UHGV virus genome: UHGV-2050067
DNA from: a virus
Length of the DNA stretch: 56,618 nucleotides
Direction: 5' to 3' (one strand)
The position numbers and the translations under genes were made by a program. Positions 2,284 through 52,765 of the stretch are shown here, in pieces (position 1 is the first letter of the stretch; each line of letters begins with the position of its first letter). Under the pieces are notes generated by a model. That model made no database searches. It had not been told where the DNA came from and saw only the letters and a program-made list of their open reading frames with translations.

Positions 2284-4101
2284 TCAATGGTGAAATAAAC
2301 CTTTAACCTTGCTAAAGAATCCGTCTTCTGGCTTTTTATCGAGCCGGTACAGTAATTCTTTTACTTTGTCTTGCAATGCCATTATCAGCTTACGATAACG
2401 TTCATGATTGCGCTGTTGACGCTGTTTCAGGTCGCCCATGTACCGTTTTTGTGCTGCCCGGCGTTGCATGTTGCGAGCAATCAGTTTGTTATATCTGTCT
2501 GATAGTTGGTTATAGCCAGATTGTAAGATGTTCACATTATTTTGCAGTTCCAGTTTATCATCCTCAAGTTCTGCCACTTTAAGCTGATAGCCCTTGATAA
2601 CTAGAGCCTTGTTGCTTGCCTCCTGTTGTTGCGCTTTGATTGTTTCCTTCGCTTCTGCCAGATCTGTACGAATGTCGTTGATTGTTTGTTTGTCTGCCGC
2701 AGCTTTCGCTTTTGCGTCGTCGTTATTTGCAGCGTTGACCTTTTGTCTTAGTTCGCAATTAGTTTTAACCAGATTGTCGCGCTCACTTTCTAGCTTCTGG
2801 CGTTTACCCTGTTCGTCACCAAATGCCTTATTCGCCTTGCTGTATTGGTGTTTCCAATAATCAACGCGGAGTTGGTAGCTGTCGCGATCTTCTCTCGCTA
2901 TGTTGAGCACTCCATGTAATTCCTTGATTTGTCCCTCCAGCGTTTTTACCTGGCATTTAAGATCTCCCACCTGTTTGCTATCTGTTTGCTGCGCAATAGC
3001 CGCGCTGATAGGGTTGTCTTTAAATTTGCGAAAAGCTACTGATAAATCAACCCTGTCCTTTTCCGCTCCTATCCGTGCCACGATCATTCCTGCGATCTCA
3101 AGCGGTGCATATCCTTTTTTGATCTGCATGTCACATTGTTCAGTGCAATAAATATAGCCAGGTAATTTATTCAAGCTTTCAATGCGGTGGCGTAATTCAT
3201 CCTCATTAATACCATACGCCGCAGCAATATCCATCAGATTGATTTCATCGGCGTCATTAACGCTAATATTATGACCGTGAAATTTGAATACTCGCGGTAA
3301 CTCATGTTCATGCGGTTCCGTGTTACTTTCTTGTTTCATTTCGTCACCCTTGTAATAACGCTGTTTTATGCGCTCCGCTTCTTCTGGTGAGATATAATCA
3401 GGGAAGTGGTTCATTTGCTTACCGTAGTATCTAATTTCGCCGTTGATGCGCTCTTTTATTGCGTCGTTAATATTATCGAAATAACCAAAGCCGTGATTTA
3501 TTGTATTAACTTTAATTGTTGCTTCCCATTTATTTTTCGCCTTATTCCATAGAACGCCCTTGATACCGCTATTTCCCCAAGGCTTACGTTTTATGCCTCT
3601 TTCGCCGCGTGATATTAATTTCAGGTTTTCAATTTTCGCGCATGAATTATCGCCGTTTTCTATTACATACCCATCAGGAATAGGGCCGTTAAACATTTCC
3701 CACACAACGCGATGCAGTTGATAATAGCGATCTTTTACACCGATTTGCAAACGTTCATAATCAGTGCCTTTTTTGCATTTAAACCCGCGAATTATATCGC
3801 CTGGTTTAATACGACATTTCCCACGCCCCCTAGTCACCTTACTAATCAGAAAACCATCAGGATGATAATCAAACAGTTCAGGCCAATTTTCCGCGCACTG
3901 GCTGCAATCAGCGTACTGAATATCGCCAGCTTCCACCGCTGTTATTTCCTTCCAATAGCCACCGGCCACCATGCGTACAAACTCGCTTTCTTTACCCCAA
4001 TGATTCCACGTTTGATATTTACGCTTCCGCATAAACACCATTCCTTCATCAATTTTTGCAAACAATTTACTTCCTCTTATCGATATAAAATATCTAGACA
4101 T
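2284..4101 (-). CDS. HNH_3-like/AP2-domain homing-endonuclease-like protein with long C-terminal coiled coil
   Basis: 605-aa ORF; HRVVWEMFNGPIPDGYVIENGDNSCAKIENLKL matches the HNH_3 pattern but lacks the catalytic His-Asp; GIKGVLWNKAKNKWEATI is AP2-like; C-terminal ~300 aa heptad-rich. Confidence 0.55.
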   Translation of the reverse strand: MSRYFISIRGSKLFAKIDEGMVFMRKRKYQTWNHWGKESEFVRMVAGGYWKEITAVEAGDIQYADCSQCAENWPELFDYHPDGFLISKVTRGRGKCRIKPGDIIRGFKCKKGTDYERLQIGVKDRYYQLHRVVWEMFNGPIPDGYVIENGDNSCAKIENLKLISRGERGIKRKPWGNSGIKGVLWNKAKNKWEATIKVNTINHGFGYFDNINDAIKERINGEIRYYGKQMNHFPDYISPEEAERIKQRYYKGDEMKQESNTEPHEHELPRVFKFHGHNISVNDADEINLMDIAAAYGINEDELRHRIESLNKLPGYIYCTEQCDMQIKKGYAPLEIAGMIVARIGAEKDRVDLSVAFRKFKDNPISAAIAQQTDSKQVGDLKCQVKTLEGQIKELHGVLNIAREDRDSYQLRVDYWKHQYSKANKAFGDEQGKRQKLESERDNLVKTNCELRQKVNAANNDDAKAKAAADKQTINDIRTDLAEAKETIKAQQQEASNKALVIKGYQLKVAELEDDKLELQNNVNILQSGYNQLSDRYNKLIARNMQRRAAQKRYMGDLKQRQQRNHERYRKLIMALQDKVKELLYRLDKKPEDGFFSKVKGLFHH

Positions 4102-6117: not shown

Positions 6118-6765
6118 ATGAAAACAAAATGGTATGACTTAGCAAAACAACTCATGCGGGCGCAGGGCATGAGCCAGGATTCATTGGCTGATCTCATGGG
6201 GATAACCAAAGGTGGCCTTTCGCACTGGCTGAACGGTCGCCGTGAGCCGAATCTTGAAGATATTGCGCGTATCATGCGGGCGCTTGGGCGTCGGCAATTC
6301 ACTGTTACTCATGACGGAATGGTCATTGATGATTCTGTTTCTAACACGTTGCCGGGAGCGCCACCGCGTGATTTAGGCAGTTACCCGGTTGTTGACTGGA
6401 AGGATGTAGCAAACAATATGGAAGGCACACACCGATCAACATTGCCACACGTTGCTACTAGCGTTATTTGTTCGGATGATAGTTATTGGCTGGTTGCTAA
6501 AGGTGAATCAATGAACGCACCGCAAGGGTTGAGCATCCCGGCGGGGACTATGATACTTGTTGACCCGCACGCGCCAGCTATTGACGGAAAACTTGTTATA
6601 GCACAACTGGAGGAAGGGCAGATACCTACGTTTAAACAGTTGATTATTGATGGAGGCCGAAAACTTTTGCGTTCACTAAATCCGTTGTATCCGCCGATCC
6701 CTATGAATCCAGAGTCAAAAATCATTGGCGTGGTTGTTGACGCGAAGATCGTAAACCTGCCATAA
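6118..6765 (+). CDS. CI-like phage repressor (HTH_XRE plus S24 LexA-like peptidase domain)
   Basis: 215-aa ORF; N-terminal HTH (QDSLADLMGITKGGLSHWLNGRREP); C-terminal S24 motifs (VAKGESMNAPQ Ser, IDGKLVIAQL Lys). Confidence 0.85.
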   Translation: MKTKWYDLAKQLMRAQGMSQDSLADLMGITKGGLSHWLNGRREPNLEDIARIMRALGRRQFTVTHDGMVIDDSVSNTLPGAPPRDLGSYPVVDWKDVANNMEGTHRSTLPHVATSVICSDDSYWLVAKGESMNAPQGLSIPAGTMILVDPHAPAIDGKLVIAQLEEGQIPTFKQLIIDGGRKLLRSLNPLYPPIPMNPESKIIGVVVDAKIVNLP

Positions 6766-7055: not shown

Positions 7056-7346
7056 ATGAGCGTTACAATCATGTATGGCAAATGTGACAGTAAACTGAAT
7101 GCCAGGGAACGCAGAAAAATAAAAAGAGAAAACGAAAGAAAATCATCACCTGCAATTAATAAAACAGACAATGTGGATAAAGCTATTCGATTTGCAAACG
7201 AGGAAAGGTGCAAACCAAATAGCATTAAAGAACGTCGCAAAGGATCAGTAAAATGGTATATGGAAAATGAAAGCGGCAGCTACTACCACGCAACGCAACC
7301 ACGCCATTTAGGGGAAAAACCCCTGGATAAAGTCCGCTATCATTAA
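7056..7346 (+). CDS. N-like transcription antiterminator candidate (arginine-rich motif)
   Basis: 96-aa basic ORF with N-terminal NARERRKIKRENERK arginine-rich motif; first gene after the promoter and nut-like site. Confidence 0.4.
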   Translation: MSVTIMYGKCDSKLNARERRKIKRENERKSSPAINKTDNVDKAIRFANEERCKPNSIKERRKGSVKWYMENESGSYYHATQPRHLGEKPLDKVRYH

Positions 7347-35579: not shown

Positions 35580-38500
35580 ATGTCAACAAATTTAGGCACA
35601 ATTTATTACGAGGTTGATGCAAAAACGGGTCAGCTTCTGACTGTTCAGCGCGAGGTAGATCGCGCAACTGGCAAAATGGAAAAGGATTTGGAGCGCGTGG
35701 ATAGTGCCGCCACTCAGGCAAGTAAGTCACTGTCAAAGCTATCCTCGATTGCCAGTGCCCTGGGTGCTGCAATGGCAGCAAAAAAAATCATTGAGTATGC
35801 AAACGCCTGGCAGGAGGTGAATAACAGGCTAATCAATAGCGTTCGTGCTGGTGAATCACTGGCAGACGTTAATCAGCGTGTATTTCAGATCGCGCAAAAT
35901 TCACGAAGCGATCTTGATGCTACGGCAGATCTTTACGGTAAATTAGAGCGCTCGACGCGCGACGCTGGTTTATCGACGCAAGCACTTGGTGATATGGTTG
36001 AAACCATTAACAAAACATTCCGCATTTCTGGCGCTTCTGCCGCTGAAGCAGAAGGCGGGATCCGTCAGTTAGGTCAGTCCCTCGCCAAAGGTATTTTGAA
36101 TGGCGATGAATTTAACTCCGTTACAGAAAACGCCACCAGGCTGTCAGAGGGTTTGGCTAAATCATTGGGCGTATCGTCGGCAGAAATGCGCAAGATGGCA
36201 GCAGAAGGGAAAATCACCCGTGAAGCTATCATTAAAGCCCTTAAGGAAATGAAAGCGGAGGTTGATGCTGAGTTTTCTAAACTCACCCCAACTATGCAGG
36301 AGGCTTTCACTGTTGCAGGCAACAACGCAGCTAAATTTTTCGGCAGCAATTCGTCAATTATGGGCGGGATTGGTGCTTTTAATTCGGCAGTTGTAACCCT
36401 GTCAGAAAACCTTAACGAAATAGCTACTGCATTTATTGGCCTTGCCACTGTGATGGGTGGCAGAGTGGTAAATAAATTCGTGGCTGCAACAGCAGAGGCA
36501 TTAACTAACGCTCAGGCAACCAGGGCACAAACGGCAGCGGCACGGCAGGCCGCTCAGAGTGAATTGGCGCTAGCTAACGCTCAGGTGGTATCAGCACGGC
36601 AATCAGCGGCGGCGTCGGCGGCAAGGCTGAGAGAGGCACAGGCTTATGCTGCGGCAAATGCCGGAACAAAATTCGAAGTTCAGACGCTGAAAGAGTTGGC
36701 TGTAGCCAAAGCACAGAACACAGCGGCATCAAACGCCCTTACTGCGGCAGAGCAGCGCCTTGCTGCGGCCCACACTGCGGCGGCGACTAATGCGGGACTA
36801 CTAAAAACAGCATTTAGCGCTACTCTGGGCGCGATCGGCGGTATCCCTGGCGCGTTAATGCTTGCTGTTTACGGGTTGACAGCATATGTAGATCACGTAG
36901 ATCAAACAGCAGAGGCAAACCGCAACCTTGCTGATTCAGTGGATGTTAGTACCGAATCACTGGAGCGAATGAGCAAGGCGGCTAAACTGGCTGGCGCAGA
37001 TAAACTACAAATATCAATGGGTCAGTTAGAGGAAGACATTGACAGTCTTAACAAACAGATTGACCAGGACACGCAGGCGCTGGAACTGAATAAGCGGGCA
37101 CTGGAGAACGCCGAGGAGGGATCACGCGCTTACGCCAACCTATCGAAAGCTAATCAGGAAATCACAGCCCGCCTGACCAGGGAAGAAGCACAGCGTGAAG
37201 ATATTCTCGACCGCCTTAATCAAATGCAGCGCAAATATATTCTGCTTATGCAGGATACAGATCCGCTAATGAAGACCATTGCCACTTCTTTGGGGTTGGT
37301 GGCAGACGCATACGGAAGAATCACCACAGAAGCAGAACGCGCAGCAGCAGCAACGCAACACGCTTCAGCAGCGCTTAACGCAGATCAACAAGAACTAATG
37401 GATCTGGCAAACCGCCGCCTGGAACTGGCAAAACTCGACTCCAAAACAGCCAGCAGGGAAAAGGCGATTGATGGGTTTAAGCGTGAGGCTGAGAAAGCAA
37501 ACCTGACCGGGGAAGCGTATGAAAAATACATGGCTACAATGACCAAAGCATACGACACAGAGCAGAAACGCGCCGAAGCTGAAAGAAAGGCCAGTCATGG
37601 GAAAAAAACTGGCGAAAGCGAGGAGAAAAAACGTCTAAAAGAGGCTGAACGCCTGCGCAAAGAGCTTGAGAAGCGGGGCCAGAATGTTGCAGACAAATAC
37701 AACGTAGAAGCCGCAGCACAACGGAAATTAAAAGAGGATCAGGATGCGCTAAACGCCGCACTTAAAAGCGGAAAAATAAATACCGAACAATATACTACGG
37801 CATGGAAAGCGCTGGTTGCGGCGGAAGAGCAACGCAAACGCCAATCTAGTTGGGATAATCTGGTAAACAATGAGCTGCAACTACGCGGGCAGCTAGACCC
37901 AATTCAGCAGGCGATGAACGAATGGGCGGTTCGCAAGCAGATGCTCACAGATTTAGGCGCTACAGAGCAATATATGAGGGAGCAAGAAAAAGCGCATGAG
38001 AGGGAAATGCTATCACTTCAGTGGGAGAGGTATAAGGCGCAGTCATTGACCAACCAACTGTTAGGCGATGCTGTTGATGCAATGAGCGGATCTGCAACTA
38101 ACGCGCTTGTCGGCCTGATTAACGGTACTCAAAATTGGCAACAGGCGATCGCTAACATTGGCAATACAATCCTTTCCTCCGTGATTGGTACGATTGTTCA
38201 AATGGGTACTGAGTGGGTCAAGCAGCAATTGATTGGTGATACGGCAAGAACTATGGCAACAACCAAAGCACTGGCAGAGGCGGCAGCGTTATCATCAGCG
38301 TGGGCTACTCCTGCATACTTGGCAAACGTAGCCACGATGGGCGGCGCGGCGACCGTGGGGACTACGAGCCTTACTACTGGTGTGGCTGGAGCAAAAGCGC
38401 TTGGCCTGGCTGGCGCTCGTTATAACGGCGGTGCGGTGGCTGCGGGCAGCCTCTACAAGGTCGGCGAACACGGCAAACCGGAAATCTTTCAGGCAAGCAA

Positions 38501-38732
38501 TGGGAGTCAGTACATGATTCCTGGTGACAACGGCAGGGTAATACCAAATCGCGACATTGGCGGCAGTGGTGGCAACGTTAGTATAAACGCGCCGATTAGT
38601 GTTTACCCACAAAATGGATGGAGTGATGAGGACGCCAAAAAGCTACAGCAGGATATGGAAAAGATCTGCATGGGCCTGATACACCGCGAATCATCCAGAC
38701 CGGGCGGAATGCTGCAACCGCGCCGCAAATAA
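35580..38732 (+). CDS. tail tape measure protein
   Basis: 1050-aa ORF, Ala/Gln-rich extended helical composition, between chaperone and minor tail genes; followed by a terminator. Confidence 0.85.
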   Translation: MSTNLGTIYYEVDAKTGQLLTVQREVDRATGKMEKDLERVDSAATQASKSLSKLSSIASALGAAMAAKKIIEYANAWQEVNNRLINSVRAGESLADVNQRVFQIAQNSRSDLDATADLYGKLERSTRDAGLSTQALGDMVETINKTFRISGASAAEAEGGIRQLGQSLAKGILNGDEFNSVTENATRLSEGLAKSLGVSSAEMRKMAAEGKITREAIIKALKEMKAEVDAEFSKLTPTMQEAFTVAGNNAAKFFGSNSSIMGGIGAFNSAVVTLSENLNEIATAFIGLATVMGGRVVNKFVAATAEALTNAQATRAQTAAARQAAQSELALANAQVVSARQSAAASAARLREAQAYAAANAGTKFEVQTLKELAVAKAQNTAASNALTAAEQRLAAAHTAAATNAGLLKTAFSATLGAIGGIPGALMLAVYGLTAYVDHVDQTAEANRNLADSVDVSTESLERMSKAAKLAGADKLQISMGQLEEDIDSLNKQIDQDTQALELNKRALENAEEGSRAYANLSKANQEITARLTREEAQREDILDRLNQMQRKYILLMQDTDPLMKTIATSLGLVADAYGRITTEAERAAAATQHASAALNADQQELMDLANRRLELAKLDSKTASREKAIDGFKREAEKANLTGEAYEKYMATMTKAYDTEQKRAEAERKASHGKKTGESEEKKRLKEAERLRKELEKRGQNVADKYNVEAAAQRKLKEDQDALNAALKSGKINTEQYTTAWKALVAAEEQRKRQSSWDNLVNNELQLRGQLDPIQQAMNEWAVRKQMLTDLGATEQYMREQEKAHEREMLSLQWERYKAQSLTNQLLGDAVDAMSGSATNALVGLINGTQNWQQAIANIGNTILSSVIGTIVQMGTEWVKQQLIGDTARTMATTKALAEAAALSSAWATPAYLANVATMGGAATVGTTSLTTGVAGAKALGLAGARYNGGAVAAGSLYKVGEHGKPEIFQASNGSQYMIPGDNGRVIPNRDIGGSGGNVSINAPISVYPQNGWSDEDAKKLQQDMEKICMGLIHRESSRPGGMLQPRRK

Positions 38733-41185: not shown

Positions 41186-41890
41186 ATGCGCAGCATACCT
41201 ACAGAAATGATTATTGATTCCGTCGATGCCGGAGTCGGCGCAGTAATTGACTTGTTTGAATTAGACCTAACGCCCCTGGGTGGCGAGGTTATCCGCTTCC
41301 ATTCCGGCGCGAATGGCTATTACGGCCCGGTTATCTGGAAGGGAGTGACTTACAACAGCTACCCAATCGAGGCTACTGGCTTCGAAATGAAAAACGAAGG
41401 CGTTTACTCGCGCCCGCAAATGGTTGTAGCCAACATTGGCGGACTCATTACGGGGATGAATAACGATTTCAACGACCTGCGAGGAATGAAGGTTACGCGC
41501 CGCCAGGTGGAAGTAAAATACCTGGATGCCATCAATTTCCCTAACGGCAATCCAGATGCAGATCCATCTATTGAGGCTGTATCTTTTTACGTCGTTGAAG
41601 CGATGAGCGAAGAAACAGCGGACCAGGTGCAATATGAACTGTCAACGCCAATTGATGCTGATAAGGCGGTTATCCCTGGGCGCACAATTCTCGCTGACGT
41701 TTGCCAGTGGCAATATCGCGGCGACGGTTGCAGATACAGTGGCGGCCCCGTAGCTACTGACAAAGACGAGCCAACCAGTGATCCGAAGCTGGATAAATGC
41801 AGCCACCGCCTGAGCGGTTGCCGTTTGCGTTTTCCGCGTCCTAATCCGTTACCAATTTCCTGTTTCCCAGGATCCAGCAAGGTGGGTTGA
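41186..41890 (+). CDS. minor tail protein L-like
   Basis: 234 aa; lambda gpL-like N-terminus and Cys-rich C-terminus (CQWQYRGDGCRYSG...CSHRLSGCRLRF). Confidence 0.75.
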   Translation: MRSIPTEMIIDSVDAGVGAVIDLFELDLTPLGGEVIRFHSGANGYYGPVIWKGVTYNSYPIEATGFEMKNEGVYSRPQMVVANIGGLITGMNNDFNDLRGMKVTRRQVEVKYLDAINFPNGNPDADPSIEAVSFYVVEAMSEETADQVQYELSTPIDADKAVIPGRTILADVCQWQYRGDGCRYSGGPVATDKDEPTSDPKLDKCSHRLSGCRLRFPRPNPLPISCFPGSSKVG

Positions 41891-42624
41891 TTATGGCGCT
41901 TGAAGATAAAATGATTCGCTATGCAGCGGCCCACCCTGACGAGGAAGTATGCGGGCTGGTGATAGATAACGATTATTTTTACCCGTGTTTAAACGTGTCT
42001 GAAACGCCTTATAACAGCTTTAAAATCTCGTCTGACGATTATATCAAAGCTGACGAATTAGGCGTTATAACAGCCGTCTTCCACTCTCACATTGAAGATA
42101 TTCCTGTATTGTCAGCACGGGATCGACAACAGCAGGTTATTTCCGGCCTACCGTGGTTTTTATGTTCCGGTGGCAGGGTAAGAAAATTCCGCCCGGTAGC
42201 GCACCTGTTAGGTCGTAAATTTGAGCACGGGAAAACAGACTGCTACTCGCTTTTTCGTGACTCCTATCACCTTTGCGGCGTGGATCTACCGGACTTTGAG
42301 CGCCACGATGGGTGGTGGCTGCGTGGGGAAAACCTGTACATAAAAAACCTGCCATTGAACGGGTTTTTCATGGTTGACGCGCAAAGTATTCAGCCAGGTG
42401 ACGTAATTATCCGTCAGCCGTTTAAAGGCGCTGACCCATGTCACGCGATGATTTACCTGGGCGATAACACTGTTTTGCATCATGACAATGCCGGACTGTT
42501 AAGCCGCCGCGAGCAAATGCGGCCCGCGTATGTTCGACAAACGCATTCAATATGGAGATCTGACAAATGCTCAAATTTAGATTTACGGGCAATCTTCGAA
42601 GATATTACGGCAAAGTGTGTTTAA
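41887..42624 (+). CDS. tail assembly protein K-like (MPN/JAB plus NlpC/P60-like)
   Basis: 245 aa; EEVCGLV...AVFHSHIEDIPVLSARD is an MPN/JAMM-like motif; Cys/His pattern in second half. Confidence 0.7.
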   Translation: MIMALEDKMIRYAAAHPDEEVCGLVIDNDYFYPCLNVSETPYNSFKISSDDYIKADELGVITAVFHSHIEDIPVLSARDRQQQVISGLPWFLCSGGRVRKFRPVAHLLGRKFEHGKTDCYSLFRDSYHLCGVDLPDFERHDGWWLRGENLYIKNLPLNGFFMVDAQSIQPGDVIIRQPFKGADPCHAMIYLGDNTVLHHDNAGLLSRREQMRPAYVRQTHSIWRSDKCSNLDLRAIFEDITAKCV

Positions 42625-43097
42625 ACGTTGATACGCCAGCGCAAGGACTTAGCTTATTGACCGCGCAGGATCAGGAGTTCAAGAAGGCTTTTTTAAATAC
42701 ACCTTTGCGCTTACGAATTGCCGGAAAAGATTATGACGAAAACACCGCACCCGCAGCGGTTAACAGTAAATACCCGGATGGGACTACCGTCATTATTGCC
42801 CCAGTGGTTGAAGGTGGTATTGCTGGGATTGGTGTCGTTGGTTGGATCTTGATTGGTGTTTCAGTAGTTAGCGTTGCGTTCTCGATCTTTATGTCACGCA
42901 ACATGAAGATAAAAACATCAGCAGAAAGCGCACAAGATAACACCATAACTAACAACACCTACACCAGCATTGAAAACAAGGTTGGACAGGGCAGGCCAGT
43001 ACCAATCCTGTTGGGTGAAATGAAAATAGGTTCAAACGTCGGATCGTTAGGCATAGACACAAGCAACAACAAAGACGCCTTAGACGTTGTAAGTTAA
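42567..43097 (+). CDS. tail assembly protein I-like
   Basis: 176 aa; N-terminal ubiquitin-like region and C-terminal hydrophobic segment; overlaps the K stop. Confidence 0.6.
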   Translation: MLKFRFTGNLRRYYGKVCLNVDTPAQGLSLLTAQDQEFKKAFLNTPLRLRIAGKDYDENTAPAAVNSKYPDGTTVIIAPVVEGGIAGIGVVGWILIGVSVVSVAFSIFMSRNMKIKTSAESAQDNTITNNTYTSIENKVGQGRPVPILLGEMKIGSNVGSLGIDTSNNKDALDVVS

Positions 43098-43110: not shown

Positions 43111-46100
43111 ATGAGTAGCGGCGGCGGCAAAGCCAAAACACCAGTATTATTAAACGATAACCTGTATCATAAACAGTTTTATCGTGTTTTAGATATTCTC
43201 AGCGAAGGGCCGATATACGGTCCGGTAAACCAGAAAGCGCCACTGAATGACGTGATGCTTAATGACACGCCTGTTACTGACGCAAACGGGAATACATCAA
43301 TCCCGGGGATTAGTGTAGCCTGGCGCAACGGCACGGCTGACCAATCGCCGATTAATGGCTTTAATGCCATCGAGTCAACCGTTATTGTCAACACAAAGGT
43401 AACTCACGACACACCAATAATCAGGACTGTTTCAGATCCAAACGTTACCCGCGTTAGGTTAAATCTTGGTGTCGATGCTCTGGTCCAGTCAGATGAAAAG
43501 GGCAACCAGTACAATACTTCCGTCATGTTGATGGTCGATGTTAAACCTTCATCATCTTCTACGTGGTCGCTGATTAAGGATATACAAATTGGCCCCGGAA
43601 AACAAAGCGGTGAGTATCTGGAAGCTCACATCATTAAAGCACCGGACGAAAAACCGTTTGATATTCGCGTGCGTCGCATAACAGCAGACAGCCACAGCGA
43701 TCTATTGCGGAACGATACGCGGTGGAGCAGTTACAGCGAAATAATTGACGATAACCTGTCTTATCCTCATACCGCTGTAGCTGGCGCAGTAATTGACCAC
43801 GATCAATATACTGATACGCCTACGCGTACCTATCACCTTCGCGGCCTGATTGTTGATGTTCCTGATAACTACAACACAGAAACGCGCACATATTCTGGTT
43901 TATGGCTTGGTGGATTCAAAAAAGCGTACACCAATAACCCTGCGTGGATTTTCCGGTATCTGGTTAAAAATGAGCGCTTCGGGCTTGCTAAACATGCTGG
44001 TTACATTGATGTTGATGATGGCGCTTTGTACGTGCTTTCTCAATACTGCGACCAGTTGGTTGATGATGGCTATGGTGGCCTTGAACCTCGCATGACTCTC
44101 AACGCTTACATTACGGAGCAAATGAGCGCCCGCGACCTACTGGATAACATCGCAGGTATGTTCCGTGGTATCGCGTTATGGGATGGACAGCGCCTTACTG
44201 TAATGATTGATGCACCGCAAGATCCAATTGCCACCATCACAAACGCAAACGTCGTTGATGGCGCGTTTACTCGCTCAAGTCTTCCGCTTGCAGAGTGTTA
44301 CAACGCCGTGATCGTATCATGGACTGACCCGGAAAACGGCTGGGAGCAATCAAAAGAATACGTGGCAGATGATGAACTAATCGCCCGCGATGGTTATAAC
44401 GAAACCACGTTGGAGGCGTTCGGGTGCACGTCACGCGGGCAAGCGTACCGCGCTGGTAAATGGCTGATAGAAACAGCAAAACGCGAGCCGTCTAAATTCA
44501 CGTTTAAAATGGCCCGTGACGCAATTCACTTCACCCCCGGTGATATTATCGAGATACTCGACAATAACCGCGCTGGCGCTCGTTTAGGCGGTCGCATCGT
44601 GGCAAACAACGGCAGGGTTATCACTGTCGATAAGGTTGATTCTGAATATATCGCCCCCGGCGACACCATTAGCCTGCTTGATAGTGACGGCAAATTTAAA
44701 AAACACCAGATCACCGGAGTTAGCGGAAACAAAATTACCCTTGCATCTGCCCCGGCATGGATTCGTAACGGTACTGTGTTTGCCGTGTCAACTAACGCAG
44801 CAAAACCCGTATTGTGTCGAATCGTCAGCGTGGCGGAAACTGAAAATAACAGCGTGTACACCATAGAGGCTGCACAGCATGATCCGCACAAACAGGCTGT
44901 AGTAGATAATGGCGCAATCTTTGAGGTCAACAACGATACGCTTAATCACTTCCGCGTGCCGAACATTGAAAACCTGAAGGTGTTAAACATTGGATCTGAA
45001 ACAGTTCAATGCCGCGCAACATGGGAAACATTGACGACAACTCATCGCCTGACCTTTGAAATCCGCGTATACAATTCAGCGGGGGCAGTAGTTAAATACT
45101 ACGAAACTACTAATTACAGTTATGATTTTTATGGCATTGATGCGGGAACCTACTCATTAGGCATCCGTGGCAGAAATGACACGGGCATGAAGGGTGCAGA
45201 AAGTATTGTGGATCTGGTTATTGGTGCACCAGCGGCCCCGGTAGGAGTTAACTGGGTTCCCGGTGTATTTCAGGCTACAGTTTACCCGATCAGCAGAACA
45301 ACACTTACCACTGACACCAGTTATGAGTTTTATTACTCAGGCGAAACACAAATCACCGATCCGACATCAGTAACCACTAAGGCACAATATACCGGGCGTG
45401 GTCATCAGTGGACGTTTGGCGGCATGAACACGGGCCACACCTATTACGTTTATGTGCGCACACGCAATGCTTTTGGCGTGTCTGACTTTGTGGAGGCATC
45501 AGGTAAGCCGACAGAGAATTTTGATGAAATCAGCGATTACGTCACCAAAGACGTGATGAACTCAGAACAGTTCAAGGAAATGATTGGTGACATCAAAGAT
45601 CTTGGTAACCGCACGGATGTTATTGAAAATGCTACAAATGAACTAAAAGCAGCTACTGACAACCTCAAAACTGCAACTGATAATCTGACCAATATAACTG
45701 ACGATTTAAGAACTGAAACCGACAACCTGACTAACATAACCGAAGATTTAAGAAATGATACTGACAACCTAATTACAGAAACAGGATCAATAAAAGCTGA
45801 TACCGATACGCTAAAAAAAGAAACAGAAGATCTTTATAAAAGAGTTAAGGAAAACGCCGATGATATTGGTCAGCATGAGTCAAGAATTGATTCATTAGAA
45901 GTGTCCAGCGAAAAAGTTGGCAGCGAACTGGCGCAAGCGAAAGCAAGCATGCAAAACGCGTCACTTGCTCTTATTAATAACTCACTTGCACAGACTAACA
46001 CCCGCGTAACTCTTACCGCTCAGTACAAGAAAGGCAGGACAGAGACGAAAGCGGAAATTGACCGTATTGACAACGTTATCGCTGAAGAGAAGAAGGCGAC

Positions 46101-48552
46101 AGCGGAATCACTGAAAACCATCACGGCAGAAATGAATACGATGGATTCAAACCTCAAAGGTCAGATTTCTAGCGTGCAACGCGCAGTAGCTGACGAGGCC
46201 AGCGCACGCGCTGAAGCTATTAACGGTGTAAACGCCTCAATAAGCAATCTTGACAAGAAAACTGACGCCAGCGTTAACCGCCTTGATCAAGCTATCGCCG
46301 ACGAAACAAGCGCACGCACCCAGGCAGTCAGCGACGTTAACGCAAATATCTCAGCACTTGACAAGAAAACTGACGCCAGCGTTAAACGTTTGGATCAAGC
46401 TATTGCAGACGAAACAAGCGCCCGCAGCGAGGCTATTAGTGGAGTAAACGCCTCGGTATCAGCTCTCGACAAGAAAACTGACTCAAGTATAAGCCGTCTT
46501 GATAAGGCAATAGCAGACGAGACGAGCGCGAGAACTGAAGCCATTAACGGTGTGAAGGCGTCAATTTCCACACTTGACGGTAAGGTCACAAGTAACGTTA
46601 ATCGTCTTGATAAGGCGATTGCTGACGAAACGAAGGCGCGCACTGACGCTATCAGCAGTGTAAATGCAAGTATTAGCACACTTGAAAGCAACACCAAATC
46701 AGAAGTAAGCAGACTTGATCAGGCGATTGCTGACGAGGCCAGCGCACGCGCACAAGCAATCAGTGGCGTGAACGCCTCAATAGACAGTCTAGAAAGAAAA
46801 ACCGACGCGAGCGTTTCCCGTCTTGATAAAGCAATAGCAGATGAAACGCAGGCAAGAAGCGACGCAATAACAGAGGTTAAAGCAGATTTAACAACGCTTG
46901 AGAACAGCACAAACGCCAGCGTTAAGCGTCTTGATCAGGCAATTGCCGATGAATCAAGCGCCCGCGCACAGGCAATATCAGGCCTCAGCGCAAATCTTGG
47001 CACTGTTGAAAATAATGTTGGCAAAAACAGCGACGAAATAAATCAGGCAAAAGCAAGCCTGCAAAACGCATCTATTGCACTTATCAATAACTCAATCGCT
47101 CAAACCAACACGCGAGTTACTCTTACGGCCCAATACAAGAAAGGCCTCAGAGAAACAAACGCGCAAATTGACCGTATTGACAATGTTATTGCTGAAGAAA
47201 AAAAAGCTACGGCAGAAGCCATTAGCGGGGTAAACGCATCTATCACTAATCTTGATGATAAGACTGAAGCAAGCGTAAACCGTCTTGATCAGGCAATTGC
47301 AGACGAAACAAGCGCCAGAGGACAAGCTATCAGCGAAGTTAGCGCAAGTGTCAGCACGCTTGATAATAAAGTGACAAGCAACGTCACCAGGATGGACAAA
47401 GCCATCGCCGACGAAACAAAAGCACGCACAGACGCAATAAGCGGCCTCAGTGCATCGCTTACCAGTACGATTAATTCAAAAGTATCTGAAGTGTCGACAG
47501 CGCTCTCTACGCATGAGGAATCAAGCGCGGAAAAATTTAGCCAGATCTCAGCGTCTTTCGAATCAGTAAACTCAAGTATTACAGAATGGTCGCAGGCAAT
47601 GGCAACGGCTGACGAGGCATTATCAAGCAAAATTGATCAGTTGACAGTAACAGTTAACGGGAACAAAACGGCGATAGAGACGACATCGAAAGCGTTAACC
47701 GACTTCAAAGGTAATGTTGATGCGTCGTACTCTATCAAGCTGGCGACCGACAACAACGGAATGAAATACGCAACAGGTATGTCGCTTGGCCTCACTGGTG
47801 ACGGCACTAACTTTCAGTCACAGTGTATTTTCCTTGTTGACCGTTTCGTGTTAATGACCGCAGCAAACGGCACATATACAACGCCTTTCTATGTCACCAA
47901 TGGCGCAATGTATGTAAGAGAAGCGTTTATTAAGGACGGAACTATCAACTCCGCCAAAATAGCCGATCGAATACAGTCAGTTAATTACAGCTGGGGAAAC
48001 GGTACAGGATGGGCGATAGATAAAGCCGGTGACGCAGTATTTAACCAGGTAACCGTAAGGGGTACGGTATACGCTTATGCTGGTGTGTTTAACGGTACTG
48101 TTTACGCAACTGGCGGTAAATTTACTGGAGCAGTTGAAGCTACAAGTTTTGTTGGTGACGTAGCAAGTATGTCAGTGATAAACGAGGATGTATTTCCGTC
48201 AATGAGGGGAAATGGCAGCAGGCGCGTTTCGAAAACTTATCTTGATTCAAGTTCATCAAGTTTATCAAAAACAGTTTACGTTATGATTCCATATGATTTG
48301 TCATACTATACATATGGGGAATCTTCTCGCATCAATGTAACTATAAATATAAGCGGACACGCAAAAACAATTGATATAGAAAGGCCAGCATCAACCCCAG
48401 CAATGTCAACTGTCGCGGTGCACTGTGTATCTGGCCTCACATACCCAACAATTACAGTAGAGGTGACGGAAAACTTTACCAATACATCTAATGCAGCAAA
48501 AAGAAAACCAGGTTTAATACTTATAACAAGAAGTTCAGGAACATGGATATAA
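43111..48552 (+). CDS. host specificity / central tail fiber protein (J-like), 1813 aa with internal repeat domain
   Basis: Largest ORF; conserved J-like N-terminal region followed by repetitive fibrous region; follows I-like gene. Confidence 0.85.
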   Translation: MSSGGGKAKTPVLLNDNLYHKQFYRVLDILSEGPIYGPVNQKAPLNDVMLNDTPVTDANGNTSIPGISVAWRNGTADQSPINGFNAIESTVIVNTKVTHDTPIIRTVSDPNVTRVRLNLGVDALVQSDEKGNQYNTSVMLMVDVKPSSSSTWSLIKDIQIGPGKQSGEYLEAHIIKAPDEKPFDIRVRRITADSHSDLLRNDTRWSSYSEIIDDNLSYPHTAVAGAVIDHDQYTDTPTRTYHLRGLIVDVPDNYNTETRTYSGLWLGGFKKAYTNNPAWIFRYLVKNERFGLAKHAGYIDVDDGALYVLSQYCDQLVDDGYGGLEPRMTLNAYITEQMSARDLLDNIAGMFRGIALWDGQRLTVMIDAPQDPIATITNANVVDGAFTRSSLPLAECYNAVIVSWTDPENGWEQSKEYVADDELIARDGYNETTLEAFGCTSRGQAYRAGKWLIETAKREPSKFTFKMARDAIHFTPGDIIEILDNNRAGARLGGRIVANNGRVITVDKVDSEYIAPGDTISLLDSDGKFKKHQITGVSGNKITLASAPAWIRNGTVFAVSTNAAKPVLCRIVSVAETENNSVYTIEAAQHDPHKQAVVDNGAIFEVNNDTLNHFRVPNIENLKVLNIGSETVQCRATWETLTTTHRLTFEIRVYNSAGAVVKYYETTNYSYDFYGIDAGTYSLGIRGRNDTGMKGAESIVDLVIGAPAAPVGVNWVPGVFQATVYPISRTTLTTDTSYEFYYSGETQITDPTSVTTKAQYTGRGHQWTFGGMNTGHTYYVYVRTRNAFGVSDFVEASGKPTENFDEISDYVTKDVMNSEQFKEMIGDIKDLGNRTDVIENATNELKAATDNLKTATDNLTNITDDLRTETDNLTNITEDLRNDTDNLITETGSIKADTDTLKKETEDLYKRVKENADDIGQHESRIDSLEVSSEKVGSELAQAKASMQNASLALINNSLAQTNTRVTLTAQYKKGRTETKAEIDRIDNVIAEEKKATAESLKTITAEMNTMDSNLKGQISSVQRAVADEASARAEAINGVNASISNLDKKTDASVNRLDQAIADETSARTQAVSDVNANISALDKKTDASVKRLDQAIADETSARSEAISGVNASVSALDKKTDSSISRLDKAIADETSARTEAINGVKASISTLDGKVTSNVNRLDKAIADETKARTDAISSVNASISTLESNTKSEVSRLDQAIADEASARAQAISGVNASIDSLERKTDASVSRLDKAIADETQARSDAITEVKADLTTLENSTNASVKRLDQAIADESSARAQAISGLSANLGTVENNVGKNSDEINQAKASLQNASIALINNSIAQTNTRVTLTAQYKKGLRETNAQIDRIDNVIAEEKKATAEAISGVNASITNLDDKTEASVNRLDQAIADETSARGQAISEVSASVSTLDNKVTSNVTRMDKAIADETKARTDAISGLSASLTSTINSKVSEVSTALSTHEESSAEKFSQISASFESVNSSITEWSQAMATADEALSSKIDQLTVTVNGNKTAIETTSKALTDFKGNVDASYSIKLATDNNGMKYATGMSLGLTGDGTNFQSQCIFLVDRFVLMTAANGTYTTPFYVTNGAMYVREAFIKDGTINSAKIADRIQSVNYSWGNGTGWAIDKAGDAVFNQVTVRGTVYAYAGVFNGTVYATGGKFTGAVEATSFVGDVASMSVINEDVFPSMRGNGSRRVSKTYLDSSSSSLSKTVYVMIPYDLSYYTYGESSRINVTINISGHAKTIDIERPASTPAMSTVAVHCVSGLTYPTITVEVTENFTNTSNAAKRKPGLILITRSSGTWI
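45640..45790 (+). repeat. short in-frame coding repeats (TDNL-type) within J-like gene
   Basis: NATNELKAATDNLKTATDNLTNITDDLRTETDNLTNITEDLRNDTDNLITE. Confidence 0.7.
46174..47470 (+). repeat. about ten tandem 108-bp (36-aa) coding repeats in J-like gene, plus a higher-order duplication
   Basis: Units of the form V-x-RLDQAIADETSAR-x-x-AISGVNASIS-x-LDKKTDAS repeated; AKASxQNASxALINNSxAQTNTRVTLTAQYKKG block at about 45940 duplicated at about 47050. Confidence 0.85.
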
Positions 48553-48557
48553 AAAAT

Positions 48558-48585
48558 AACCCCGCTTCGCGCGGGGTTTTCTTTT
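48558..48585. terminator. bidirectional rho-independent terminator between J-like gene and lipoprotein moron
   Basis: aaccccgc-ttcgc-gcggggtt hairpin flanked by A-run upstream and T-run downstream. Confidence 0.65.
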
Positions 48586-48832
48586 AGTAGTTAGCTACAC
48601 AGTTAGAAGGGCTACCGATGCGGCGCATGTTGTGATCGAGTTCGTGACACCATTGACCAGTATAAGGCAGTTTTTCAGTGTCATAGACAAGATGCCCGTT
48701 AACATCATAAACAACATCCTGTGGAATTACTCCACTATTCGGCAGGTTATGCAATGCAGCTTCCTTATCAACAGCACATCCAGTAAGAGCTACAGCCGCA
48801 GCGAACAAAACCACTTTGAACATGTTTTTCAT
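48584..48832 (-). CDS. lipoprotein moron (possible Cor-like superinfection-exclusion lipoprotein)
   Basis: 82 aa; signal peptide with lipobox (VALTGC); opposite strand between J and tail fiber genes. Confidence 0.55.
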   Translation of the reverse strand: MKNMFKVVLFAAAVALTGCAVDKEAALHNLPNSGVIPQDVVYDVNGHLVYDTEKLPYTGQWCHELDHNMRRIGSPSNCVANY

Positions 48833-49009: not shown

Positions 49010-51214
49010 ATGATTTACACAACTGGAACAATTGCCATCAACGGCAATACTGTTACAGGCACGGGAACAAACTTTTCCGCGCCGCTTTCTCTTATTCGTG
49101 TAGGTTGCACGCTCATTGCTGTTGGCAATCCGGTACAGATCTTTACCATCACAGAAATTAAAAGCGGCACTGAACTGTCAGTGACGCCAGCGGCTAACCC
49201 CGCCATCCCTGCCGGGACAAAATTCAGCATCCTGCTATCTGACTCGATCTCAGTTGATGGGCTTGCTCAGGATGTGGCTGAAACCCTGCGTTACTACCAG
49301 GGCAAGGAAACAGAGATCGCCGCCGCTGTCGAGTGGTGGGAGGATTTTGGCGGCGAAGGTCAGTTGGATCAGCTTCTTACCAACATTCGCGCAGAGACAG
49401 CCAAATCAACCGCCAACGCTCAAAAAACAGGATCCGACAAAAACGCAGCAGAAGCGTCAAAAACAGCGGCTGCAAAATCCGCCACGGCAGCGAAAACATC
49501 AGAAACCAACGCTAAGGCAAGTGAGACGGCAGCGAAAACAAGCGAAACCAACGCCAAAACATCAGAGAACAGGGCGCAAAAATATCTGAATCAAATGGGA
49601 AGGCTTACCAGCCCAATGGTCCAATGTGCTTGGCCTGTTAATACTAGCGGTAATGGCGCTTACGTTAAGATTGCTAAACTTAGCGATCCAAAGTTTTCAG
49701 AGTGCCACTTAACGCTAATGGTTACAAATGGCGGTGGCTACGGTTTAAGTTACGGGAATATTGACTTTATAGAGATCTCCGCTCGAGATCTTAACGACAC
49801 AGGCGAAGTAACCAGTGAAAATATATCTAAATTTTTAAGTATTCGCCGACTCGGTTCACCAAACCTTCCCAATAATAGTCAAATGCGTTACGGCCTGGTT
49901 AAAGGTGACGGCTATATCGAGGTCTGGTGCTACCAGCGATCTTATATTCAAGGCACAAAAGTAGCGGTGCTGGCGCAGACTGGCAACACGGAATTATACA
50001 TTCCTGAAGGATTTGTTAAACAAGACAATGCACCTTCAGGATTTATTGAAAGCCCAGCAGCAAGGATTTACGACCAGGTAAACAAACCTACTAAAGCAGA
50101 TTTAGGCCTTTCTAATGCTATGCTTATAGGCGCTTTTGGTCTTGGCGGTAGCGGTCTTACTTTGGATGGTAAAATGACCGATAAGGAACTACTACAAGAG
50201 CTAAGGGCGAAAGGTGGGTGTTTCTGGAGGTCAGGAAAACCAACAGGTAGCGAATCAACAATTTTCAGCCACGGTTCTGGTATATTCTCGCGGTGCGGCG
50301 ATACGTGGTCAGCTATTAATATCGATTACGAAAGCGGTAGAGTAAAGATTTACTCTAGTAACGATAATAGACTCAACAATGGTACTTTTAACATAAATGA
50401 GCTATACGGAACCAAATACAAGCCGTCGAAATCGGATGTTGGACTTGGTAACGTAACTAACGATGCGCAGGTGAAAAAATCCGGCGACATTATGTCAGGT
50501 GATCTGTCGATCACTAAAGCAACACCTTCACTATACCTGCGTTCAAAAAGTGGAACCGCCCATGTATGGTTCCAAAATGAGGATCAGTCGGAACGCGGCG
50601 TTATTTTTGCGCCTACAAATACTGATACGCTTGGAGAAGTTCACATCAGGGCTAAAAACGCAAAAGGTGAAACAAACGGTGATCTTATTGTTCGCCACGA
50701 TGGGAGGGTTGAAGTCCGTGATCTCTCAGTAGAGTATAAGATTAAAAGCGCCACCGCAGAAGTTAGCGGTAATATCACATGCCAGACACTTCACCAATCA
50801 TCTGACCGCGACCTTAAAGATAACATTCAGGTTATAGGTGAAGCCACTGAATTAATCCGCAAAATGAACGGGTACACCTACACGCTCAAGGAAAACGGCC
50901 TTCCTTATGCTGGCGTTATTGCACAGGAAGTAATGGAGGCGCTACCGGAAGCCGTAGGATCGTTTACTCGTTACGGTGAAGAATTGCAGGGTCCGACCGT
51001 TGACGGCAACGAGCTACGAGAAGAAACACGTTACCTTAATGTTGACTATGCGGCGGTGACTGGTTTACTTGTCCAGGTGGCACGCGAAACGGATAACCGC
51101 GTCACCGAACTGGAAGAGGAGAACGCAAGCCTGAAAGCTAACATTGCCGCAATGGATGAGCGGATAGCAAAACTTGAAGCGCTTATCAGTCAGTTGACCG
51201 GAAGCGAAGAATAA
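49010..51214 (+). CDS. tail fiber protein with C-terminal intramolecular chaperone (S74-type) domain
   Basis: 734 aa; Ala/Thr-rich repeats (KTSETNAKASETAAKTSETNAKTSE); C-terminal DLKDNIQVIGEATELIRKMNGYTYTLKENGLPYAGVIAQEV and final coiled coil typical of autoproteolytic chaperone domains. Confidence 0.75.
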   Translation: MIYTTGTIAINGNTVTGTGTNFSAPLSLIRVGCTLIAVGNPVQIFTITEIKSGTELSVTPAANPAIPAGTKFSILLSDSISVDGLAQDVAETLRYYQGKETEIAAAVEWWEDFGGEGQLDQLLTNIRAETAKSTANAQKTGSDKNAAEASKTAAAKSATAAKTSETNAKASETAAKTSETNAKTSENRAQKYLNQMGRLTSPMVQCAWPVNTSGNGAYVKIAKLSDPKFSECHLTLMVTNGGGYGLSYGNIDFIEISARDLNDTGEVTSENISKFLSIRRLGSPNLPNNSQMRYGLVKGDGYIEVWCYQRSYIQGTKVAVLAQTGNTELYIPEGFVKQDNAPSGFIESPAARIYDQVNKPTKADLGLSNAMLIGAFGLGGSGLTLDGKMTDKELLQELRAKGGCFWRSGKPTGSESTIFSHGSGIFSRCGDTWSAINIDYESGRVKIYSSNDNRLNNGTFNINELYGTKYKPSKSDVGLGNVTNDAQVKKSGDIMSGDLSITKATPSLYLRSKSGTAHVWFQNEDQSERGVIFAPTNTDTLGEVHIRAKNAKGETNGDLIVRHDGRVEVRDLSVEYKIKSATAEVSGNITCQTLHQSSDRDLKDNIQVIGEATELIRKMNGYTYTLKENGLPYAGVIAQEVMEALPEAVGSFTRYGEELQGPTVDGNELREETRYLNVDYAAVTGLLVQVARETDNRVTELEEENASLKANIAAMDERIAKLEALISQLTGSEE

Positions 51215-51550: not shown

Positions 51551-52765
51551 ATGCTGACGGATACGAAATTACGCGCAATAGCAAACAAGCCATATGACGG
51601 CCCGAACGAGATAGCGGATCGCGACGGCTTGTCTGCCAGGATAAGCCCGAAGGGGAAAATTATTTTCCAGTTCAGGTACAGGTTCAACGGTAAGCCTGTA
51701 AGGATGAAGATTGGCGATTACGGCAGTATGACATTGAAAGATGCACGCTACGCGGTGGCAGAATACAAAGAGCTATTAGCGAAGGGGAAAAACCCAACTG
51801 TTTCAGTAAAGCAAGCGATAAATATTGAGCGTGGCAAATTAACAATAAGCGCCATTGTGAGTGACTATTTATCCCTGCCGAACGTTATTAAGCTGGTTGC
51901 ATATAATGACGTCAGGAGCGCGCTTAAGCGCCATGTTGTCGATAAATTCGGTGAGTATATTGCCGATGATGTCAGCACTAAACAATGGATGGACATATTC
52001 GGCGAGATCACTGCGGCGGGCCACGCGGTTACGGCTGGGCTGATACTCAAGCGAATGAAGATTGTTGTGAACAGCGCTATCCGGCGCGGGCTAATGACCA
52101 GTACAGCGATAAACAATATCAGGGTTGTTGACGTAGGCGAAAATTATGCGGTTGGCGAGCGTTATTTATCGTGCGATGAAATAGGCCATTTCTGGCGAAC
52201 GGTGGATGATTCGCAGATCTACCGTCAGAACAAGATAGCATTAAAGCTATTATTGCTAACCGGGTGCAGGGTGGGGGAGTTGCAGAAAATGAGAAGGGAA
52301 CACCTCGACCTGGACAACGGAGTATGGACCGTCCCGGCGGCGGTGGCGAAGACAAGAAGTGAAATCAGGCGTGGATTATCAGATTTGTCGATAAAAATGC
52401 TCAGGGAGGTATTATCCTCCCATGAGTATGATTATGTGTTCCCGCCAGTGATTAACGGAGGGAACAGACCAGTAAACGCATCAGTGATAAAAGTAGCTGC
52501 AATCTTCGTGCGTAAAAGGATGGGAGGCAAATCATGGTCCTGTCACGACCTCCGCAGGACGTGCCGTACACACCTTTCAGCTATAGGTGTTCCGGTACAT
52601 GTCGCGGAAAAGGTATTAGGCCATTCACTCAGGGGAATACTGGCAGTGTACGACAAATATGATTATCTTGATGAACAAAAGGAGGCGTTAAATAAATTTG
52701 CGGATTACGTCTTATCCCTGGCTGGCGTTAATCCGATCTTATCAAAGAACCGCATCACCTCCTGA
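51551..52765 (+). CDS. int: tyrosine integrase (P4-type)
   Basis: 404 aa; arm-binding-like N-terminus; catalytic region with GCRVGELQKMRREHLD (Arg), HDLRRTCRTH (His-x-x-Arg), VLGHS, VYDKYDY (Tyr). Confidence 0.9.
   Translation: MLTDTKLRAIANKPYDGPNEIADRDGLSARISPKGKIIFQFRYRFNGKPVRMKIGDYGSMTLKDARYAVAEYKELLAKGKNPTVSVKQAINIERGKLTISAIVSDYLSLPNVIKLVAYNDVRSALKRHVVDKFGEYIADDVSTKQWMDIFGEITAAGHAVTAGLILKRMKIVVNSAIRRGLMTSTAINNIRVVDVGENYAVGERYLSCDEIGHFWRTVDDSQIYRQNKIALKLLLLTGCRVGELQKMRREHLDLDNGVWTVPAAVAKTRSEIRRGLSDLSIKMLREVLSSHEYDYVFPPVINGGNRPVNASVIKVAAIFVRKRMGGKSWSCHDLRRTCRTHLSAIGVPVHVAEKVLGHSLRGILAVYDKYDYLDEQKEALNKFADYVLSLAGVNPILSKNRITS

Follow-up and report, generated by a model that had tools for sequence, protein, structure and literature searches.

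An expanded, repeat-built helical insert at the shaft position of a lambda-J-type tail fiber in an E. coli prophage

The J gene and its repeat-bearing insert

The J-like tail fiber gene described here lies in UHGV-2050067, a virus genome of 56,618 nucleotides (nt) that we refer to, at its full length, as the window. It is a single frame of 1,813 codons without an internal stop at 43111-48552 on the plus strand, according to the open reading frame (ORF) list and its translation. Judged by its sequence, the product is a lambda-J-type central tail fiber (gpJ/TipJ family). A preliminary description had called it a J-like protein some 700 amino acids (aa) longer than lambda J, which our searches bear out. 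The Pfam matches were FNIII-A_GpJ (aa 88-214, E = 8e-35), Phage-tail_3 (aa 335-492, E = 1e-28), Ig_J (aa 609-707, E = 6e-14), Ig_J_second (aa 709-811, E = 1e-32), and Phage_Tail_Tip (PF09327; aa 1521-1658, E = 2e-39). A phmmer match to lambda gpJ (PDB 8iyk; E = 2.7e-183) aligned two parts of the protein, aa 1-850 and aa 1516-1688, and ~665 aa are inserted relative to lambda J (1,813 versus 1,132 aa). Over aa 812-1520, a whole-protein scan returned only sub-threshold noise and no repeat or coiled-coil Pfam family at E ≤ 0.1. The gene and the domains that flank the insert are as follows, with the basis of each in parentheses (AF2, AlphaFold2).

43111-48552, plus strand: gene of the 1,813-aa J-like central tail fiber/tail tip protein (ORF list, Pfam, lambda gpJ match)
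43111-45543, plus strand: hub and FNIII/Ig domains, aa 1-811 (Pfam; alignment to lambda J 1-857; 91-99% identity among relatives)
47671-48084, plus strand: Phage_Tail_Tip (PF09327) beta-prism domain, aa 1521-1658 (Pfam; aligns to lambda J 839-1001; AF2 beta strands)
48091-48549, plus strand: C-terminal receptor-binding domain, aa 1661-1813 (identity comparisons among relatives)

The surroundings of the gene match those of a siphophage tail module. The tape measure gene (35580-38732) lies upstream of J, and the ORFs at 41186-41890, 41887-42624, and 42567-43097, directly 5' of J, are counterparts of the genes that mEp phage annotations name L, K, and I. A 23-kb structural module upstream is 73-91% covered by mEp phages at 86-93% DNA identity, and the J gene itself is 84-88% identical in DNA to the J genes of mEp044, mEp554, mEp013, mEp021, and mEp010. 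On these comparisons we assign the window to the mEpimmI group of E. coli prophages. By homology, the J protein would form the trimer that closes the tail tip.

The insert is built from three kinds of sequence element, arranged as listed here (HMM, hidden Markov model).

45544-47640, plus strand: probable expanded alpha-helical shaft, aa 812-1510 (no proline, periodicity 3.60, AF2 helix)
45652-45840, plus strand: nine acidic xTDNLxx heptads, aa 848-910 (repeat search, lag identity, periodicity 3.54)
45916-46065, plus strand: block A copy 1, aa 936-985, beginning QAKASMQNASLALINNSLAQTNTRVTLTAQYKKG... (repeat search, phmmer; kinked and of low confidence in the AF2 model)
46063-46170, plus strand: degenerate 36-aa unit a0, aa 985-1020 (unit HMM, 3.7 bits; a0 orthologs in relatives at 87-98% nt identity)
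46171-47034, plus strand: eight contiguous 36-aa (108-nt) units a1-a8, aa 1021-1308 (Tandem Repeats Finder, unit HMM, lag-108 autocorrelation)
47026-47175, plus strand: block A copy 2, aa 1306-1355 (repeat search, phmmer; AF2 break at aa ~1312-1336)
47173-47496, plus strand: three further 36-aa units b0-b2, aa 1355-1462 (unit HMM)
47497-47640, plus strand: terminal shaft segment leading into the beta-prism, aa 1463-1510 (AF2 helix to aa 1509; alignments to 9l9p_S and 25vf_A)

Repeats had earlier been placed at 45640-47470, and they are indeed found there, inside a helical insert that as a whole extends over about 45544-47640. The first count of "about ten" 36-aa repeats holds: an HMM built from the clear units recognized 12 in the protein, 11 of them good (E = 1e-13 to 1e-23) and one degenerate. 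Units a1-a8 share the consensus RLDxAIADETSARxxAISGVNASISxLDxKTxxSVx. The periodicity is equally plain in the DNA. Tandem Repeats Finder reported a period of 108 nt at 46183-46529, and a DNA repeat search found eight copies at exact 108-nt spacing with one more 462 nt downstream. Across the first array, base identity at lag 108 was 0.59, compared with 0.286 ± 0.03 at other in-frame lags, which is ~10 standard deviations above background.

The short TDNL-type repeats that had been noticed ahead of the units proved to be nine heptads rich in Asp and Glu. Identity in this region was 0.53 at lag 21 and 0.63 at lag 42, versus 0.31, revealing a super-period of 14 aa (42 nt), and Tandem Repeats Finder gave a period of 42 nt at 45669-45770. 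A higher-order duplication is also present, although the preliminary estimate of ~100 aa for its size was too large. In the DNA, 45934-46107 and 47044-47217 (174 nt each) are 80% identical; in the protein, the repeated stretch amounts to some 50-65 aa (aa 936-999 versus 1306-1369), made up of the ~50-aa block A and the initial 15 residues of the unit that comes after it.

The insert has the character of a coiled coil, as had been suspected. There is no proline in the 704 aa from 812 to 1515, versus 35 in aa 1-811. Hydrophobic residues recur with a period of 3.54 across the heptads and of 3.60 across the arrays of units, with a power of 8.6 versus ~1 in the N-terminal control, so that a periodicity within 3.5-3.67 is sustained in a region free of helix breakers and predicted to be helical. 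Each 36-residue unit has ten core positions, spaced 4,4,3,4,3,4,3,4,4,3. A unit thus corresponds to two heptads and two hendecads, or ten turns, which would leave the hydrophobic seam of a bundle nearly straight. AF2 run on the single sequence of aa 791-1540 gave a near-continuous helix (pLDDT 62) that was interrupted at each copy of block A, where pLDDT dropped under 50 (aa 928-972 for copy 1). With a multiple-sequence alignment (MSA) of 38 sequences, the model of aa 1355-1700 was helical from aa 1356 to 1509 at pLDDT 92-98, and beta strands began at ~aa 1513.

Copy number and receptor-binding domain among relatives

Protein homolog searches returned only proteins of ≤1,243 aa, many of them contig-end fragments, and copy number was therefore taken from genome records, comprising the J genes of seven phages and of nine complete E. 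coli genomes (n = 16 relatives). The partial homologs that start or stop within the repeats are P0001-P0003, P0006, P0011, P0013, P0014, P0018-P0021, and P0099-P0110; some C-terminal fragments carry a precomputed PF28217 annotation. Short-read E. coli assemblies commonly break in the J gene. The matching genomes had a median of two matching places, and second J-like genes may contribute to the partial homologs.

The length of the fiber varies among these relatives, as the preliminary description had suggested it could, and it does so by whole units. J ranges from 1,393 to 1,935 aa. The first array holds 4, 5, 8, 9, or 12 units (counting the degenerate one) and the second 0, 1, 3, or 5. The number of TDNL-type motifs runs from 3 to 10, with a 14-aa change in length where the heptad region alone differs. 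Each unit of a relative has one clear best DNA match among the window units, which makes the units position-specific orthologs, and the differences between relatives are gains and losses of whole units. In MIN12, for example, a2 is precisely the one unit missing, and the remaining units are each 91-100% identical to their counterparts; three additional units are present in Ec_190 and in PRO_A. In mEp515, five units and a single block A are present, and the first array is joined directly to the last unit. MagusPhagus likewise has a single block A. The layout of the window (1 + 8 and 3 units, 1,813 aa) occurs in none of the seven sequenced phages.

The receptor-binding domain does not follow the shaft. 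Its 153 aa are 100% identical in Ec PRO_A, which has 12 + 3 units, and 97% identical in MIN12, which has 8 + 3. Strain 127, in contrast, shares the 9 + 3 layout of the window and ends in an unrelated C terminus (35% identity). The occurrence of near-identical domains on 8 + 3, 9 + 3, and 12 + 3 shafts, together with the contrast offered by strain 127, indicates that shaft length and receptor-binding domain assort independently. Identity of the domain to its mEp-phage and MagusPhagus counterparts is only 31-57%, and to the J C termini of MagusPhagus and of CAjan- and Seurat-type phages it is 50-54%.

Receptor use has been assigned for several of these phages, and it shows a like independence from shaft length. 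The OmpA users mEp515 and mEp021 (PMC11893012) have 5 and 13 units by our count, and the J proteins of LamB-using mEp phages range from 1,504 to 1,828 aa (PMC11893012). Directly 3' of J in the window, at 48584-48832 on the minus strand, is a gene for an 82-aa lipoprotein with the lipobox LTGC that is 96% identical to Lpp010 of mEp010. Lpp010 is a type-C superinfection-exclusion lipoprotein that excludes LamB-using phages, including lambda (PMC11893012). This resemblance hints that the window phage uses LamB, although identity between its receptor-binding domain and the domains of mEp phages that use LamB is no higher than 31-46%.

The repeats themselves have already been described for this group of coliphages: the J proteins of mEpimmI phages were reported to differ in size and to carry repeats of varying length at positions 950-1,475 (PMC11893012, Front Microbiol 2025), in a study that gives no unit-level, structural, or evolutionary dissection of them. 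The J proteins of mEp021, mEp044, mEp554, mEp010, mEp013, mEp515, and MagusPhagus resemble that of the window in gene, context, heptads, block A, and 36-aa units, with 91-96% protein identity at the N terminus in addition to the 86-93% DNA identity of the structural module. The window differs from them in its layout and in its receptor-binding domain. It adds to the group one more allele, distinguished by these two features, and what is new here is the unit-level anatomy and the evolutionary picture.

Beyond this group, shorter versions of the protein exist. The ~1,230-aa J-like proteins of E. coli prophages (P0009, P0010, P0012, and P0015) have block A, 36-aa units, and Phage_Tail_Tip in common with the window protein, but contain one block A and one or two units, with no array and no block duplication; by sequence, they probably represent the unexpanded state. 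The entry 9l9p_S in the PDB, a "putative tail fiber protein" of 1,172 aa, has unit-like repeats of the IADETQARxxAIxxLKAS type at residues 877-976, and a short shaft of related sequence may therefore already have been solved experimentally. When a unit profile was searched against 1.84 billion representative proteins, only 43 clusters matched at E ≤ 1e-3, which marks the unit as an uncommon sequence type. Some metagenomic J-like proteins have 5-7 units in the 36-residue register. In P0062 (1,922 aa; representative library), the profile matches 15 stretches at irregular spacing, and long shafts of such a type may have more than one origin.

Readings of the insert

In lambda gpJ, residues 809-861 make up the alpha-helical shaft, a bundle of three helices that joins FNIII-2 to the beta-sheet prism and that flips and partly refolds upon LamB binding (PMC11101478). 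The insert occupies the same position between domains homologous to those of lambda gpJ (PDB 8iyk, 8xcj), but at ~700 residues as opposed to 53. A second homology reaches into the insert itself: aa 1365-1540, the last ~175 aa of the shaft only, align to residues 914-1086 of the F2-pyocin fiber (25vf_A; E = 4e-6). The aligned stretch covers the last three units and the terminal segment, and also aligns to 9l9p_S. F-type pyocin central fibers (F7; F2, PDB 25vf) are, like the window protein, J-like, with a long coiled coil between FNIII and the beta-prism and with Glu/Arg pairs at i+4. They differ from it in that their coiled coil has 163 residues, contains no array of 36-aa units, and switches its fold, as shown by experiment.

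We propose, with a probability of roughly 0.78, that the repeats encode a much elongated alpha-helical shaft for the trimeric central fiber, a gpJ homolog, of an mEpimmI-type temperate siphophage. The position of lambda's 53-residue three-helix bundle would be filled here by ~700 helical residues comprising the acidic heptads, the non-regular block A twice, and twelve 36-residue units. The units would derive from old in-frame tandem duplications, each being individually conserved since, and the occasional gain or loss of a whole unit, or of a super-repeat of block plus units, would change the length of the shaft and leave the hub and the receptor-binding domain untouched. At roughly 0.15 nm per residue, ~700 residues would span on the order of 100 nm if the coiled coil is continuous, placing the receptor-binding domain ~100 nm from the tail tip, compared with ~8 nm in lambda. 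Selection for such a length could come from reach through the O-antigen or capsule, or from the spacing of side fibers. The unit HMM found no 36-aa unit in lambda J, so that the units do not amount to a mere multiplication of the lambda shaft. Mass spectrometry found the J protein of mEp021 in virions (PMC11893012), which speaks for the proposal.

Several points weigh against this proposal. The parallel trimeric packing, which we infer from homology to lambda gpJ and the F-pyocin fibers, the physical length of ~100 nm, and the adaptive value of that length, such as reach through O-antigen or capsule, are all deduced. Published transmission electron microscopy of mEpimmI phages gives tails of ~130 nm with no conspicuous long tip fiber. 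The modest pLDDT of 62 in the single-sequence model and the kinks at both copies of block A suggest that the shaft may be segmented or bent there. Finally, phages with 5 to 13 units (our counts) all plate on E. coli K-12 (PMC11893012). As this host is infected by short- and long-shaft phages alike, length is not critical on a rough laboratory strain.

These same phages have a use, in that they complement a natural length series formed by shafts of 11, 12, and 15 units that bear near-identical receptor-binding domains. Together, the two sets could address whether the length of the central fiber matters for reaching an outer-membrane receptor through O-antigen or capsule.

A further suggestion, compatible with a lengthened shaft and not opposed to it, is that the acidic heptads and the duplicated block A serve as docking sites for the trimeric side fibers encoded downstream (49010-51214), the duplication supplying a second tier and the units acting as spacers. 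In the F7 pyocin, the coiled coil has an acidic gap to which three side-fiber trimers attach, and kinks in phage fibers that are not coiled coil have been suggested as side-fiber attachment sites (PMC12874032). The richness of the heptads in Asp and Glu fits this, as does block A, the only kinked, low-confidence part of the AF2 model, which is present twice here and once in mEp515 and MagusPhagus. A side-fiber gene of the S74 type lies just downstream of J. We regard docking as a tentative idea that is on balance improbable.

The pyocin homology also raises the question of whether the shaft is a metastable spring, most of its ~700 residues refolding to a triangular beta-prism after receptor binding and shortening the fiber several-fold. 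Such a collapse would draw the tail tip against the outer membrane and assist in opening it, and the number of units would set both reach and stored energy. In the J-like fiber of F7, a trimeric coiled coil of 163 residues (921-1083) refolds to a beta-prism on cell binding; switching regions are marked by an SxSxxMxxLxS strand motif and by Glu/Asp-Arg pairs at i+/-4 that make buried salt bridges, and Gln at the S positions stopped switching (PMC12874032, a January 2026 preprint). The C-terminal 175 aa of the shaft are homologous to the F2-pyocin region that corresponds to the switching region of F7, and a beta-prism "seed" domain follows directly. Within the units, Glu9 is invariant and Arg13, at i+4, is present in 10 of 11, which is the salt-bridge signature of the preprint. 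In lambda, too, the C-terminal part of the shaft (841-861) turns to beta strands on LamB binding (PMC11101478).

The strand motif itself is equivocal. For units a1-a8 under an 18-residue tiling that we devised, L fitted at 32/32 and M at 31/32 positions. L and M make up the coiled-coil core, and such a fit (63/64 together) is expected in any 18/5 coiled coil. Small residues occupied only 26 of 48 S positions, and unit position 4 is Gln or Lys. The AF2 monomer with the 38-sequence MSA is a confident helix with no prism, a result that does not inform on a trimeric switch, and the preprint describes lambda and T5 as lacking an extensive switch (PMC12874032). We therefore consider refolding of most of the shaft unlikely. 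Broader interest would attach to the shaft only if it proved to be a scaled-up fold switch. A joint version, in which a metastable trimeric coiled coil of ~100 nm collapses several-fold to reel the virion onto the outer membrane, with reach and stored energy tuned in evolution through the number of units and the block A kinks serving as docking tiers for side fibers, seems to us just as unlikely as the spring.

Another reading takes the array for a fast contingency locus, in which highly similar repeats undergo frequent slippage or recombination and continually generate length variants. Unit copy number does vary among relatives (4-12 in the first array, 0-5 in the second), as do heptad matches (3-10), and a clean loss of one unit sets MIN12 apart from near-identical relatives. 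The near-identical DNA repeats expected of a hypervariable locus were, however, not found among the window units. Paralogous units are 50-73% identical in DNA (mean, ~60%), their longest common exact runs are 5-29 nt, and few of these exceed 20 nt. Third codon positions agree in 36% of cases, positions 1 and 2 in 72%. With third positions near saturation and the other two retained, the array is old and under purifying selection, rather than a young slippage array. Orthologous units, moreover, keep their position-specific identity across phages that are ~85% identical in DNA. The 9 + 3 layout and the 1,813-aa length are shared by 2-331 and 127, both complete genomes and independent, with repeat-region identities to the window of 96.8% and 91.2%. 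In calling the region recombination-prone, the preliminary description thus overstated the case, and we give very little credence to a contingency locus.

The same observations bear on the worry, also voiced in that description, that the repeat count reflects a collapsed or expanded assembly. Many database homologs are "partial" and end inside the repeats, and short-read assemblies often break there. Units this diverged, however, share no exact run longer than 29 nt, so that any read of at least 100 nt can be placed unambiguously. The frame, moreover, is unbroken, 2-331 and 127 have the identical layout and length, and N921 (96.7% identity) aligns across the entire repeat region without a gap and at equal length. 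An assembly artifact is very unlikely, and next to no weight falls on it.

Antisense frames and neighboring genes

Two minus-strand ORFs overlap the repeats.

46395-46697, minus strand: ORF of 100 aa, an artifact of repeat codon composition (periodic translation, ALVSSAIALSRRL...; codon-complementary frame; boundaries unconserved)
47289-47630, minus strand: ORF of 113 aa, an artifact of repeat codon composition (codon-complementary frame)

All minus-strand ORFs in the repeats lie in the codon-complementary frame and translate to a mirror image of the periodic peptide, and they do not keep the same ends in different relatives, where they vary in size between 71-aa pieces and 328 aa. We therefore rejected them as real antisense genes, in agreement with their earlier dismissal as repeat artifacts. 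The deposited mEp annotations also place antisense Rho-independent terminators within the J repeats, at 6185-6231 in mEp044 (L001), 6189-6227 in L004, and 7184-7222 in mEp515 (L006), all on the minus strand. Because the repeat sequence is periodic, these are probably prediction artifacts as well.

Between I and J, the two OmpA users have an additional ORF of 567 nt, at 2437-3003 in mEp021 (L003) and 3437-4003 in mEp515 (L006). Neither the window nor the other relatives have it. The mEp021 annotation calls it a putative HNH endonuclease and the mEp515 annotation a hypothetical protein, and it looks like a mobile homing-endonuclease insertion.

Downstream of J, the plus-strand gene at 49010-51214 encodes a 734-aa side tail fiber with a C-terminal Peptidase_S74 intramolecular chaperone domain. 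In relatives, the corresponding slot holds a "pyocin knob domain-containing S74 family peptidase," a "phage head spike fiber domain-containing protein," or a "tail structural protein," and these differing genes indicate that the side-fiber slot is also mosaic. Right after the fiber genes, at 51551-52765 on the plus strand, is a gene for a tyrosine integrase (Arm-DNA-bind_3 and Phage_integrase). The end of the prophage and its attachment site should lie near 52.8 kb, and the ORFs beyond are probably host genes.

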